A DNA stretch of 64,000 bases. It comes from Candidatus Hadarchaeota archaeon (GTDB lineage: Archaea; Hadarchaeota; Hadarchaeia; Hadarchaeales; JAGGTB01). Within the stretch, counting starts at the first letter, position 1; every line of letters starts with the position of its first letter. The translations under genes were made by a program, and so were the position numbers. A model generated the notes under the pieces. It saw only the letters and a list, made by a program, of their open reading frames with translations. It made no database searches and was not told the DNA's origin. The stretch covers positions 320,001 to 384,000 of the forward strand of contig CAYLJV010000001.1 in NCBI GenBank assembly GCA_964384105.1, in the 5' to 3' direction. Positions 16,773 to 31,246 of this stretch are shown here, piece after piece.

Positions 16773-16909
16773 GCTGGGGTGGCGCAGTAGGTAGCGCGCT
16801 CGGCTGTTAGGTTAAGGCATGGATGAAGAGCGAACCTCCATCTTGTAAACTTGACATGCCGGAAAATGCGGCAACCGAGCGGTCGGAGGTTCGAGTCCTC
16901 CCCCCAGCG
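16773..16909 (+). tRNA. tRNA-Asn(GTT) with 64-nt canonical 37/38 intron (16810-16873)
   Basis: Acceptor GCTGGGG/CCCCAGC with G73, D stem GCGC/GCGC, anticodon stem CTCGG/CCGAG, T arm GGAGG-TTCGAGT-CCTCC. BHB: central helix CUGU/GCGG, bulges UA|G and CA|A. Confidence 0.95.
16816..16860 (+). ncRNA. Intron-encoded K-turn / box C/D-like element
   Basis: Stem GGCATG/CATGCC directly flanks G-ATGAAGA (box C-like) and TTGA (box D-like). Confidence 0.55.
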
Positions 16910-17049: not shown

Positions 17050-17826
17050 TTACTGCTCTTCTATTCGGTAAGTTCCATCGTAATCGATAAATTCGATTAT
17101 TTCCCGGTCTCTCAGAACTTGTAATTGCTGTCTTATTTTAGCTTTGATATGTTTATTTTCCGGATGTTGTTTTTTTAACTGCTCTTTGAACTTATAAATA
17201 TCTTGAAGGGTAAAAATCTCCTTATCTAGCTTTCTAACATATCTGAGTACATCGTTTAACCATCCTTTTGAGGACAACTCTTCTTCTTCCATGAATTCAA
17301 ATTTTTTCCAATATTTTCTAACTTTGGGTTTGGGTAGAATTTCTCCATCTCTAATTATATAAAGAAAAGCGTCTTCGGGAAATTTATTTAATAATATGTT
17401 TGAGCCTTTCCATCCTGATCTCCTGGCATCGTCAGATAATGGTTTTCTTTCTTCAACAGCTTCTAAAGTCATGAAGTGTTTTGGTAGGATCATTAATTCT
17501 TCTACAGTGTATTGCTTGATATCATATCTCAAGAATACCCAATTTGGGGAAAGGCCTTTTTTAATTCGTTTAATTTTGGTATTATACTCCGAATTGGCTA
17601 CTTTATTCCCAAAACTTCTGGATTTAGCTTTTAATTGAAATGTTTCTTCACAGCTAGGACAAATAAAATCCTTAACTTCGGTATTCTCAGGTAATTTTTT
17701 TACTTTGTCGGAATCACAAGCTGGACAATACATCTCTTCCTTGAACCAAGCTTCTGTCAAAACTCTAGCTATCTGTGATTTTGATTTATAATCTTCTGCT
17801 TTTGATTGGTCCATTGATAGTTTCAT
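17050..17826 (-). CDS. DpnI-family (Dam-replacing) m6A-dependent restriction endonuclease
   Basis: YKS.SQ.ARVLTE.W, two CxxC pairs, RKPLS..ARR.GW.G.NI, and winged-helix KIRQQLQ.LRD. Colinear with pneumococcal DpnI as I recall it. Start re-set to ATG 17826. Confidence 0.93.
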   Translation of the reverse strand: MKLSMDQSKAEDYKSKSQIARVLTEAWFKEEMYCPACDSDKVKKLPENTEVKDFICPSCEETFQLKAKSRSFGNKVANSEYNTKIKRIKKGLSPNWVFLRYDIKQYTVEELMILPKHFMTLEAVEERKPLSDDARRSGWKGSNILLNKFPEDAFLYIIRDGEILPKPKVRKYWKKFEFMEEEELSSKGWLNDVLRYVRKLDKEIFTLQDIYKFKEQLKKQHPENKHIKAKIRQQLQVLRDREIIEFIDYDGTYRIEEQ

Positions 17827-17879
17827 TAAATTTTCGATGATATCTAAGAGTCTTTTCAATAAAAGGATTTTTAATTTGG

Positions 17880-20705
17880 TCAAAACTTGTTTTTTAGTAG
17901 ATTTTTTAAAGATTCCTTTGAAAGTGTTTTGAGTTTTCTGCAATTTCCTTGAGAAGTGTAGAGAATTTTCGCTGATATCTCTTTATTTTCAAATACTCCA
18001 TCAAGTGCATAATAATAAGCACTCAGCTGCTTTCGGTATTCCTCTTCATTAGTTCTTTCTTCATCCGTTTTGTAATCAACTATCTCTACTTTATCTCTCT
18101 CAACGTGAATCAGATCGATACATCCTTTCAGGACTATTCGCCTTCCATCAATTTCAAGCGGCAACAGACAAGTTTCCTCTACTATTAGATCTCCATTTAG
18201 TCCGTCCAAAAATTCTTTCACATTTTCCTCGTCAGAATTACTCGGTTTTACGTCTTCGCCCAAGCCGTAACGCTCGGCAAAGAGGTGAATTTTCTTGCCG
18301 TATTCTTCACCCTTTCCCGTCTTTGTTTCTACATTGAGCAAAGAACTTACAGGTACCTTGAGAGGAGATTTGTAAGGGGGTTTTTCGATTTTGAAATTCT
18401 CTATTTCTTTCTCTTCAGCCTTCACCCTTTTCGGTTCGATTTCTACCTCCGCCGATTCAATCTCGAGATTATCAAAGAACGGACTCGACCTGCCTATCTC
18501 GGAGCTCAAAAAGAGATATCTTTTGGCCCGGGTCATGGCCACGTACATTAGCCTCCTCTCCTCATCGTATTCTCCACTCAAGCATCGGTGCAGGATCTCC
18601 GTTCTCCAGTTATCGTAAATATAGGGCAACCCCTCGTCTCGGTAAATCTTCTTCTGTCTCAAACCTACTGGGTCCAGGTAATCTATTCTTCCACCCCCGC
18701 TACCACTGCTCGGAAATCTGGATTGATTAATATCGGAGACGAAAACTATCGGATGTTCGAGTCCTTTCTCCGCATGGATCGTACGGACTTTTACAACGTC
18801 TCCACTGCTACTGCTGTCTATCTCATATCTCGTATTATCTTCGATATTGTCCTCAATGAACTGCACAAGCCTTCCAGTGTTCATGTAAGTTCTCTTGAAA
18901 GTATTCTCGAGTATCTCGATAATCTTATCTGCGAAGGCGTTGGTGATACAGTATCGGTCGAAGACTCTTCTGGCAACGGCTGAAATGCTATCAATACCCC
19001 CAAGCTCCTTTCTGAAATCAATCATGTTTTTTGGATAATCTCTATTCTTCAAGATATACCTAGTTTCATCAAGGTTGTAACCGGCCTCTTCAAGAACTAC
19101 AGCCCAACCCCTTTTCGAATTTTCGTAGTTAAGGATTCTCAGCCATGCAAGAAGAATTATTGCCGGGTCGGTTTTGAAGAGTTCGGTACCACCCTCATAT
19201 ACGAGAGGGATACCATATGTTCTCCCTAATCTCTGAAGTTCTAGACCGAACTTAGAGGTCCGCGTTAGGATAACTATGTCACTGTAAGTTGGCTCTCTGA
19301 ACTTACCTTCTTCTCCGATAAGATAATTTGAATTTCCCACGATCTCTTGAATTTTTCCAAGAACCAACTTTTTTTCATCCTTACTCTTAAATGCCTCTAT
19401 CTTGGTTGGTCCTTTCATTTTCTCGCTCGACTCTAGTGAGGTGATTTCTTTCATTATCTCTTCTTTATCTAAACTCTCTTTCTTGGTAGCCTCGAGAATC
19501 AGGCTCTGTTCGGAAAATTTGAGTATCTCCTGAGAGGATCGATAATTTACCTTCAAGGGGATTTCTTTAACATTATCTACTTGATAACCGATTCGAGAGT
19601 AGTCCTCGTTAAGCTCCCGTCTGTATCTTTTCAATCTCTTCTCGAATTTTCTAATGTTGTCTACGTCCGCGTACTGGAAGGAGTAGATGCTTTGCTTCCA
19701 GTCTCCGACGGCGCAGATATTTGGACGGTTGGTGAGAAGTAGTGCGAGTTTGAGCTGGATCTCGCTCGTGTCCTGAAACTCATCAATCATGATATAGTCG
19801 TAACCGAGTTCCTTTCGTAGATCATGGTCTTCGCAGAGCAGAATGTAAGCGAACATAAGCAGAAAGTCAAAGTTGAGATAGTTTCTGTTCAGAGCGTACT
19901 TTATATATTCATAGTATACGTCGTGAACGAATCCTTTCAGATCTTCTCTATCTTCAAGAAATGCTTTCTCCGAAATTTCTTCGGGGACCTGCTTGCACCT
20001 AGAACCTCTGACCTCTACTGGTTCGGGTGCTCCTTCAGGGAAGCACTTATTTTTATATCCATTCAGCCGGGCCCGGAGTTCGGACTGTCTGTTTCCCTCG
20101 TTCTCCGGTTTGTTGACCTTTTTGAACAATTTTCCAAATTCCTCGAAATCGCCTTCGAGATAACTCTCCCCGTTCTGGTACCATCCGTCTTGAGTGGGAA
20201 ATATTCCCTTGGAGGCGAGTTTTTTGATCAAGTTTAACAGATTTTTAAAATCGTAGATTATTCTATAGTAATCTACATATTTTTGATTGTTATCTATAAA
20301 ACGGTTCATGAACCTTCTGAACTCCAGCCTTTCGAGAATCTCATTCTCGATAATGTTAGTTGAAGAAGTAATACTGTCTTGGATTCCTATAAGCTTCGGA
20401 GCTCCAAAACCGTGTGTTTTTATTATTCTGTTGCAGAGACTGTGAAAAGTGCAGATAGGTGCTTCTCTGAGTTCTCCTGGCCTGCGGTCTTTACAGAGAC
20501 TTATCACTTTCTTTTTCATTTCCTCGGCGGCGTTTTTTGTGAAGGTGACAAGGAGCAAGTCTTCTGGGTCTATATCTCGCTCTTGAAGGATATGGGCGTA
20601 TCTTCTTGTCACGGCAAAGGTCTTGCCAGTTCCCGCTCCTGCATCTACAAGATAGATACCATCTATATTTTCAATCAGCTCTTGTTGTTGCTCATTCGGT
20701 TTCAT
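17880..20705 (-). CDS. AddA/RecB-like UvrD helicase with C-terminal PD-(D/E)XK nuclease
   Basis: DAGAGTGKT, IDEFQDTS, VGDWKQSIYSF, NYRS, YVAMTRAK, then G.IDLI..IVDYKT..QL.AY. Confidence 0.9.
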   Translation of the reverse strand: MKPNEQQQELIENIDGIYLVDAGAGTGKTFAVTRRYAHILQERDIDPEDLLLVTFTKNAAEEMKKKVISLCKDRRPGELREAPICTFHSLCNRIIKTHGFGAPKLIGIQDSITSSTNIIENEILERLEFRRFMNRFIDNNQKYVDYYRIIYDFKNLLNLIKKLASKGIFPTQDGWYQNGESYLEGDFEEFGKLFKKVNKPENEGNRQSELRARLNGYKNKCFPEGAPEPVEVRGSRCKQVPEEISEKAFLEDREDLKGFVHDVYYEYIKYALNRNYLNFDFLLMFAYILLCEDHDLRKELGYDYIMIDEFQDTSEIQLKLALLLTNRPNICAVGDWKQSIYSFQYADVDNIRKFEKRLKRYRRELNEDYSRIGYQVDNVKEIPLKVNYRSSQEILKFSEQSLILEATKKESLDKEEIMKEITSLESSEKMKGPTKIEAFKSKDEKKLVLGKIQEIVGNSNYLIGEEGKFREPTYSDIVILTRTSKFGLELQRLGRTYGIPLVYEGGTELFKTDPAIILLAWLRILNYENSKRGWAVVLEEAGYNLDETRYILKNRDYPKNMIDFRKELGGIDSISAVARRVFDRYCITNAFADKIIEILENTFKRTYMNTGRLVQFIEDNIEDNTRYEIDSSSSGDVVKVRTIHAEKGLEHPIVFVSDINQSRFPSSGSGGGRIDYLDPVGLRQKKIYRDEGLPYIYDNWRTEILHRCLSGEYDEERRLMYVAMTRAKRYLFLSSEIGRSSPFFDNLEIESAEVEIEPKRVKAEEKEIENFKIEKPPYKSPLKVPVSSLLNVETKTGKGEEYGKKIHLFAERYGLGEDVKPSNSDEENVKEFLDGLNGDLIVEETCLLPLEIDGRRIVLKGCIDLIHVERDKVEIVDYKTDEERTNEEEYRKQLSAYYYALDGVFENKEISAKILYTSQGNCRKLKTLSKESLKNLLKNKF

Positions 20706-31150: not shown

Positions 31151-31246
31151 GGGCCCGTAGCTTAGTCCGGTTAGAGCGCCCGACCAATAGAAATTGGGGC
31201 GAAGCTCATAACCGGGTGGTCGAGGGTTCGAATCCCTCCGGGCCCA
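31151..31246 (+). tRNA. tRNA-Ile2(CAT) (agmatidine type) with 21-nt non-canonical intron at 30/31 (31183-31203)
   Basis: Acceptor GGGCCCG/CGGGCCC with A73 is Ile-type. Spliced arm is CCCGG-CTCATAA-CCGGG. Strict hBHBh': GAG/CUC, CGCC/GGCG, CCAAU/AUUGG. Confidence 0.9.

Follow-up and report, generated by a model that had tools for sequence, protein, structure and literature searches.

The closest described system to the element reported here is the intron of euryarchaeal pre-tRNA-Trp, which nests a box C/D guide RNA (Omer 2000; Clouet d'Orval 2001; Singh 2004, as cited in PMC4090602 and PMC7994747) and whose ribonucleoprotein (RNP) is described as acting in trans (PMC7994747). A 2014 review calls it the unique archaeal tRNA intron encoding a functional unit (PMC4090602). 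In Pyrobaculum aerophilum, a C/D small RNP makes Cm56 in the tRNA T-loop; according to the review that summarises this work, its RNA is a free-standing canonical box C/D small RNA (sRNA) that substitutes for the missing Trm56 and serves many tRNAs (Renalier 2005, via PMC7912444). Mammalian intron-derived K-loop RNAs, introduced in a recent preprint as compact orphans with terminal C/D motifs, bind the protein 15.5K (bioRxiv 10.64898/2026.08.03.742641). The present report concerns the 64-nt intron of a tRNA-Asn(GUU) gene in the window, that is, the whole stretch of 64,000 nucleotides analysed from the genome of a Candidatus Hadarchaeota archaeon. This intron carries a conserved kink-turn (K-turn) motif of box C/D orientation, and its loop is antisense to the T-arm of the tRNA in which it lies. 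An earlier sequence-only reading of the stretch knew of no C/D case for tRNA-Asn, and a full-text literature search likewise returned no account of a tRNA-Asn intron with a K-turn or C/D element (supplements, which may list introns, lay outside that search). The canonical intron of Methanopyrus pre-tRNA-Asn has been used as a cleavage substrate, and the excerpted text of that report mentions no K-turn or C/D element (PMC5829648).

The introns of tRNA-Asn and tRNA-Trp are alike in being anticodon-loop introns of about 65 nt that carry C/D-type K-turn elements and are antisense to their host tRNA. That of tRNA-Asn differs in its host, in possessing one K-turn and no C'/D' pair, in a box D reduced to xxGA and in its departure from the N+5 rule. 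Its antisense is directed to T-arm positions 50-57, whereas the anticodon arm (positions 34 and 39) is the target given for the tRNA-Trp intron. With the P. aerophilum RNP, the RNP proposed here would share a K-turn guide organisation and an antisense to the T-arm and T-loop, which must open; unlike that system, Trm56 is present, the RNA is intronic, the best match is to one tRNA and no D' box marks C56. Like the mammalian K-loop RNAs, the element has intronic C/D motifs, a presumed L7Ae-type ligand (15.5K being a homologue of L7Ae) and a possible action on its own host intron. The mammalian RNAs differ in residing in spliceosomal mRNA introns and in having K-loops without a C helix, and the preprint, as excerpted, reports no conserved host-exon antisense for them.

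The source genome (1.62 Mb, 39.8% G+C, 12 contigs) was compared within a genome collection that comprises 65 species genomes of its class and 66 of its phylum. Fifty-two long-form introns, 50 of them distinct, were aligned with MAFFT (alignment A1); the relatives in the alignments are not independent samples, and the structure strings tested on them were picked once the sequences had been viewed. An irregular helix of about ten pairs runs from the splice motif to the K-turn, which caps a loop of 18-20 nt. The C helix of the K-turn, 6 bp long in the source intron, reaches 8 bp in some relatives; it is paired at 93.6% over the 50 distinct sequences and shows compensatory changes in 7 of 8 pairs. 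For the full intron structure 94.7% of cells are paired, compared with 86.2% in shuffles (0/500 as high), and pairing drops to 24-42% when the partners are slid. Both sheared pairs, G16825.A16854 and A16826.G16853 in the source intron, are constant among the distinct sequences, 1b:1n being G:A and 2b:2n A:G in 50/50. The bulge is constant in length, with L1 occupied by G in 42 sequences and A in 8, and with A at L2 and U at L3 in all 50. Position -1b:-1n is G:C in 49/50, and the GA of the box D-like motif is invariant (50/50); the motif is variable at its first two positions and reads ACGA in most relatives. The box C-like and box D-like motifs stand 21 nt apart in the source intron. The stem, the GAU bulge, the G.A and A.G pairs, both box-like motifs and their spacing had all been proposed by the sequence-only reading, and each is found where it was placed; covariation of the stem and conservation of the sheared pairs, to which that reading had looked for confirmation, are evident in the alignment.

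A standard K-turn is defined by three bulged nucleotides and, next to them, tandem sheared G.A and A.G pairs (PMC5689011). The intron element resembles Kt-7 and the box C/D K-turns, as described in that source, in its 3-nt bulge, its G.A/A.G pairs and its Watson-Crick C helix, and it shares the G:C at -1b:-1n with the Archaeoglobus fulgidus box C/D K-turn (PMC5689011). K-turns with G:C at this position, in the same account, are not folded by metal ions and depend on protein (PMC5689011). The intron element is unlike the archaeal C/D K-turns, for which U:U at 3b:3n and G:C at 4b:4n are given (PMC5689011), in its third and fourth pairs: 3b:3n is A:C in 38, A:U in 7 and U:C in 2 of the 50 sequences, with three singletons remaining, and 4b:4n is G:A in 39, G:U in 7 and G:C in 3. 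Most relatives have a possible second G.A/A.G pair beyond the first (GA-A-GA opposite GAC-GA). The C helix points toward the base or terminal side and the loop lies on the NC side, which is the box C/D orientation. Taken together, covariation and conservation support the presence of a real, conserved standard K-turn of this orientation, which would be expected to kink and to bind L7Ae. The L7Ae family gene is present in the genome (94.4 bits).

The most conserved part of the loop is an element of eleven columns (33-43 of A1), and its antisense begins at the second base past the box C-like motif in every sequence, there being no indel between K-turn and antisense in 50/50. The whole loop (columns 33-53) measures 18-20 nt in 48/50 sequences. 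In a second alignment that includes the T-arm (51 sequences), the eight pairs of loop CGARCCUC with T-arm positions 57-50 hold in 50-51 of 51. The sole frequent change in the antisense, from A to G in 9 sequences, retains a G.U pair. The antisense, which the sequence-only reading had reported as an exact complement of positions 49-57, is indeed so, and among the 46 tRNAs of the genome it forms nine Watson-Crick pairs out of nine with tRNA-Asn alone, owing to A51; the next best is tRNA-Arg(UCU), with one G.U. The loop:T-arm duplex has a computed energy of -18.8 kcal/mol versus -6.7 kcal/mol for the T hairpin. Against 16S and 23S rRNA, the loop gives matches of 8-9 nt at best, G.U pairs counted, and the conserved element is poorly covered by all of them. 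Genome-wide, besides its own antisense strand, one 12-nt Watson-Crick match is found (contig 1, near 500159), where about two are expected by chance.

The intron is a feature of the entire class. A whole-precursor search recovered the gene in 55/61 genomes; all 55 loci carry an intron of 42-64 nt at the same site, as do 5 of 6 further loci, giving a homologous tRNA-Asn intron in 60/65 genomes of the class. In the five remaining class genomes, which are 75-88% complete, the searches detected no tRNA-Asn gene. The phylum's single genome outside the class encodes a tRNA-Asn of 76 nt that has no intron and differs in its T-stem. The core intron pattern occurs once per genome; extra matches with two mismatches are scattered, and coding wherever inspected, and intron paralogues were rejected. 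A scan of metagenome contigs for the core pattern returned at least 119 stretches, and the 80 retrieved comprise 37 tRNA-Asn introns of the same type and 43 unrelated chance matches. Many relatives possess a second, non-canonical tRNA-Asn intron besides the conserved one at 37/38, located in the acceptor or position 7-9 region (loci L008, L012 and L013), in the D-arm (L017, L022 and L025) or in the T-loop (L016 and L027).

Two variants of the intron separate its modules. In family f5 (three genomes) the intron is 42 nt long, with no variable spacer, no GA strand and no 3' half of the stem; AUGAAGARCGAGCCUCCAU is retained there in a plain hairpin loop. At locus L035, found in one genome, the K-turn is kept and the antisense is degraded. 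The K-turn and the antisense are thus separable, since each occurs in one of these variants with the other lost or degraded, and the antisense is the most strongly retained part, because f5 introns have lost the 3' strand of the K-turn and still keep it.

The host gene is matched by the Rfam tRNA model RF00005 (56.3 bits, E 5.9e-11) with an insertion of 65 nt in the anticodon loop. The loop reads C-U-G-U-U-A, followed by the 64-nt intron and then A38 (16874), so the intron occupies the canonical 37/38 site. ARAGORN misses the gene without its intron option and with introns reports it as 'Ala(ggc) i(35,64)', setting the intron two bases earlier. It is read as tRNA-Asn because its acceptor stem has U3-A70 and not G3:U70, because tRNA-Ala(GGC) is encoded separately elsewhere in the genome, and because it is the sole candidate tRNA-Asn among the 46 tRNAs predicted by ARAGORN. 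The splice motif contains two bulges of 3 nt (16808-16810 and 16872-16874), the cut following the second base of each, and a short outer helix (16811-16813 with 16865-16867); its central helix (alignment columns 6-9/72-75) is paired at 96% in 50 distinct relatives. With two 3-nt bulges, a 4-bp helix and the 37/38 site, the intron belongs to the archaeal bulge-helix-bulge tRNA introns. The coordinates of all features are collected in Table 1.

Table 1. Features of the tRNA-Asn(GUU) locus, in window coordinates.
Feature	Position	Strand	Details
tRNA-Asn(GUU) gene	16773-16909	+	exon 1 16773-16809, intron 64 nt 16810-16873, exon 2 16874-16909; no encoded CCA
Bulge-helix-bulge splice motif	16804-16874	+	central helix 16804-16807/16868-16871 (C-G, U.G, G-C, U.G)
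K-turn C helix, 5' strand GGCAUG	16816-16821	+	pairs with 16855-16860
K-turn bulged strand	16822-16829	+	loop GAU 16822-24, G1b/A2b 16825-26, AGA 16827-29
Box C-like AUGAAGA	16823-16829	+	overlaps the K-turn bulged strand
Conserved loop element RCGARCCUCMA	16830-16840	+	columns 33-43 of A1, invariant or two-state
Antisense CGAACCTCC	16831-16839	+	exact complement of GGAGGTTCG 16885-16893 (tRNA positions 49-57)
Variable loop spacer	16841-16850	+	columns 44-53; sequence unconserved, length constrained
K-turn non-bulged strand, box D-like UUGA	16851-16854	+	G16853 and A16854 form sheared pairs
K-turn C helix, 3' strand CAUGCC	16855-16860	+	closing pair G16821-C16855 (-1b:-1n)
T-arm 5' strand and T-loop, GGAGGUUCG	16885-16893	+	positions 49-57, proposed pairing partner

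The sequence-only reading had suggested that the excised intron is a single-guide C/D-like sRNA. What holds of this is the K-turn, its C/D orientation, the register of the antisense and the presence of genes for L7Ae, Nop5 and fibrillarin, the Nop5 gene adjoining the fibrillarin gene in the source genome and fibrillarin scoring above the cut-off in 62/65 genomes; what does not hold is membership among the canonical guides. The box C-like AUGAAGA matches RUGAUGA at 6/7 positions, with A for U at position 5, and AUGAUGA itself occurs in 2/52 relatives (loci L004 and L049). In place of the CUGA of box D there is UUGA here and ACGA in most relatives, only xxGA being constant. No C'/D' pair is found in the single loop of 18-20 nt, columns 44-53 of A1 containing no conserved motif. 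Counting five bases upstream from UUGA leads to U16846, which is part of the variable spacer, and the conserved antisense lies 12-20 nt upstream of box D; the earlier reading had itself cautioned on both counts, noting the missing C'/D' pair and a D+5 position that does not reach C56. An Rfam scan with E up to 10 places no family but tRNA on the intron, and no C/D family matches. Trm56, the enzyme that makes Cm56, is present in the source genome (E 1.8e-50) and in 35/61 relatives, and the intron is alike with or without it. On these grounds (no C'/D' pair, box D of xxGA, N+5 in the spacer, no Rfam C/D match, Trm56 present) the intron is not assigned to the C/D guides; as judged from its motifs, it is guide-like in layout and is not a canonical C/D methylation guide. 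A Cm56 guide replacing a lost Trm56 was considered and rejected as a general function, Trm56 being present here and the intron independent of it. H/ACA guides are marked by a pseudouridylation pocket beneath the upper stem, an apical K-turn or K-loop and an ACA at the 3' end. In the intron the lone internal loop under the stem is AA opposite GGAA and the K-turn has the C/D orientation, so that no H/ACA guide is recognised.

A positive control is provided by the tRNA-Trp intron of the class, which has the canonical pair CUGA and GAUGAUGA and covarying guides, one of which puts position 39 at N+5. In the source genome this is the 65-nt intron of tRNA-Trp(CCA), contig 1 105316-105457, with canonical boxes D' CUGA and C' GAUGAUGA. 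The intron is conserved in the class; there is covariation between its guides and the anticodon arm, and its terminal C and D boxes look degenerate. A genome-wide search for canonical C/D sRNAs yielded 0 with a strict pattern and 4 with a loose pattern, versus 0-2 in shuffles, too few for a lineage consensus. One of the 4 is a candidate canonical C/D sRNA on contig 2 at about 66284 (- strand), reading GUGAUGA, 12 nt, AUGA, a short loop, a C'-like box, 12 nt and CUGA, with a 5-bp terminal stem. Among the relatives, Trm56 (PF01994) is found in 0/6 genomes of genus g5 and in 1/13 of genus g9, that one being a 48-aa fragment with stops; several of the g5 and g9 genomes are 90-95% complete. In genus g4 (genomes G016, G019 and G023), the open frame that contains the fibrillarin match is 612-613 aa long, suggestive of a gene in which Nop5 and fibrillarin are fused.

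The intron is probably a functional structured RNA rather than a mere spacer. The reading that we tentatively prefer, though its likelihood falls a little short of even, is that it forms an L7Ae-bound, C/D-like RNP that pairs with the T-arm of tRNA-Asn or its precursor as a guide or chaperone. L7Ae would bind the K-turn and kink the intron, and the kinking would free the loop from a competing local hairpin and display it. The loop could then pair with the T-loop and the 5' T-stem strand of tRNA-Asn, either within the precursor or, as for the tRNA-Trp intron, between molecules, before or after excision. In this way a C/D-like half RNP, not governed by the N+5 rule of canonical methylation guides, would serve maturation as an antisense guide or chaperone, holding the T-arm or opening it. 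For Methanopyrus, the excerpted text of PMC3695527 places intron removal late in tRNA maturation, which would leave time for an intron-dependent step; late removal there, together with the trans-acting tRNA-Trp intron RNP, makes such a step plausible. That the tRNA-Trp intron of this class has C'/D' boxes and covarying guides further suggests that intron-borne RNPs exist in the class.

The small nucleolar RNAs U3, U8 and U14 are non-methylating box C/D RNAs that chaperone pre-rRNA via base pairing. The tRNA-Asn intron would resemble them in combining a C/D K-turn RNP with an antisense that serves folding or processing rather than N+5 methylation; unlike it, they are eukaryotic, directed to pre-rRNA and encoded by independent genes or in mRNA introns. 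A bolder version of the preferred reading, which we regard as somewhat doubtful, would make the intron a non-methylating, tRNA-specific archaeal counterpart of the C/D snoRNPs, in which an L7Ae-dependent intron RNP seizes its own T-arm, in the precursor or in trans once excised, and times or checks folding and modification before splicing releases tRNA-Asn. To our knowledge, there is no tRNA-directed or archaeal case of a non-methylating C/D chaperone.

Several observations weigh against a guide or chaperone that pairs with the T-arm. Chance alone would give a complementarity of 8-9 nt in about 0.5% of cases (11/2000 intron shuffles reach a 9-nt perfect intron-exon complement), and this one was noticed after the fact. 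The ninth pair, of C with G49, is present in just 16/51 sequences, and where G49 is replaced by A the intron has A and not U. T-arm positions 50-57 are invariant in 51/51 sequences, and there is no compensatory change between loop and T-arm; the case for the pairing is therefore made from complementarity and conservation, and the covariation that cannot be counted is the main weakness of the pairing hypothesis. The nested minimum-energy fold retains the cloverleaf with the loop folded on itself, and pairing in cis would form a long-range pseudoknot that may be sterically hard. Pairs 3b:3n and 4b:4n differ from the U:U and G:C of the C/D RNAs. Finally, AUGAAGA is conserved in family f5, where there is no K-turn, a fact that pairing with the T-arm leaves unexplained and that may point to a different ligand.

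Another view takes the K-turn as a handle through which a protein controls splicing or compacts a long intron. L7Ae, or some other protein that recognises the K-turn or the loop, would determine the fold near the splice motif and with it the rate of cleavage; the conserved loop would bind protein and its match to the T-arm would be incidental. This seems unlikely, although several observations agree with it: the K-turn and the splice motif are separated by about one helical turn, the G:C at -1b:-1n predicts that folding depends on protein, AUGAAGA persists in f5 without a T-arm partner as well as without a K-turn, and the T-arm pairing has no covariation support. Moreover, without protein the computed fold favours the competing hairpin (-18.2 versus -8.1 kcal/mol). 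This hairpin, which the sequence-only reading had pointed out, does exist as the minimum-energy fold of the intron alone (-18.2 kcal/mol, z -2.1); it has no comparative support, being paired at 69.6%, as in shuffles (285/500 as high), and a switch operating through it was not adopted. The L7Ae-gated switch on tRNA-Asn maturation that the sequence-only reading had also suggested would need this hairpin and, as the hairpin is not conserved, is doubtful rather than disproved. The mammalian K-loop RNAs are a precedent in that, together with 15.5K, they reportedly suppress excision of their host intron, in the excerpted account (bioRxiv 10.64898/2026.08.03.742641). On the other side, a scaffold has no need of ten invariant single-stranded nucleotides, the alternative hairpin of a switch is unconserved, the element matches its own tRNA better than the other 45, and f5 drops the K-turn and retains the antisense. 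The last point tells also against a true 2'-O-methylation guide, in which L7Ae, Nop5 and fibrillarin on the single K-turn would methylate a T-arm ribose of tRNA-Asn; the whole of family f5 is without the K-turn that this demands. The predicted site would be A51, marked by U16837 (the eighth base after box C) if the Nop5 dimer imposes the spacing of a 12-nt C-to-D' spacer; C56 as the alternative site needs a D' box at 16837-40, where UCCA or UCAA stands. We know of no ribose methylation at tRNA position 51, which counts against this option. The C/D-oriented K-turn and near-match to box C speak for it, as do the antisense at spacer positions 2-9/10, where D' guides pair, and the distribution of fibrillarin together with its neighbour Nop5, and there are precedents in the Pyrobaculum C/D sRNP that makes T-loop Cm56 (as reviewed in PMC7912444) and in the intron-borne guide of tRNA-Trp (as reviewed in PMC4090602). 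Methylation is nevertheless improbable given the absence of a C'/D' motif (columns 45-48, the expected place of D', are variable), a box D that is mostly ACGA, the aberrant third and fourth K-turn pairs, an N+5 base that falls in the variable spacer, and an intron that is the same with and without Trm56.

It is very improbable that the complementarity is a functionless relic of the origin of the intron, for example through insertion of an inverted tRNA fragment. Such an origin finds a parallel in the intron of tRNA-Met, which in this genome only also holds a 9-nt complement of its own T-loop and indicates that T-arm antisense can enter introns. The Asn element, in contrast, is near-invariant across five families in which the flanks and the remaining loop diverge, it has outlived the deletion in f5, and, in a comparison by eye, the match falls short of a full inverted T-arm. 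The tRNA-Met gene in question, of the elongator type (CAU; contig 8 35433-35567, - strand), has a 57-nt intron with the perfect complement GGATTTGAA (reached in 4/2000 shuffles), and by eye the 17 nt around it are a near-exact reverse complement of the T-arm of several other tRNAs. It was rejected as a second conserved case, as the gene is intronless in relatives of the same genus; for the same reason the intron is regarded as a recent gain. A small open reading frame in the tRNA-Asn intron, from ATG at 16819 to TAA at 16848 (9 codons), was also rejected, since its start lies in the covarying stem and is lost in relatives with a GCGCG stem, and since the frame lacks a stop in other relatives.

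Should the preferred reading be correct, the class-wide K-turn and antisense point to a helper RNA for tRNA maturation of a kind not described before. The intron would join that of tRNA-Trp as a second case, with a class-wide, covariation-backed K-turn and with a fixed antisense directed at another region of its host, and it would offer a concrete reason for the retention of an intron in a tRNA gene. As a natural minimal C/D-like RNP, with one K-turn and one antisense, it may be useful in studies of guide-RNP evolution and of the architecture that such RNPs require. The reading makes testable predictions: a gel shift by L7Ae, pairing of loop and T-arm, and the presence or absence of a ribose methyl group at positions 49-58 of tRNA-Asn. 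An RNP that seizes the T-arm, if real, would be the first RNA-guided tRNA chaperone or checkpoint, and such introns would form a second, mechanistically different class of functional archaeal tRNA intron. For annotation, the locus serves as a warning, as ARAGORN reads the gene as tRNA-Ala or misses it.

A further tRNA is encoded in the window at 31151-31246 (+ strand; Rfam 55.3 bits), with about 21 extra bases in the anticodon arm. It is read as tRNA(CAU) with a non-canonical intron inside the anticodon stem, and ARAGORN with default settings reports a 4-base anticodon for it. Leucine-type biosynthesis genes lie upstream of tRNA-Asn. Immediately downstream are a gene for a DpnI-like restriction enzyme of the methyl-directed family (window 17050-17943, - strand) and one for a UvrD-type helicase with a PD-(D/E)XK nuclease domain (window 17880-20705, - strand).

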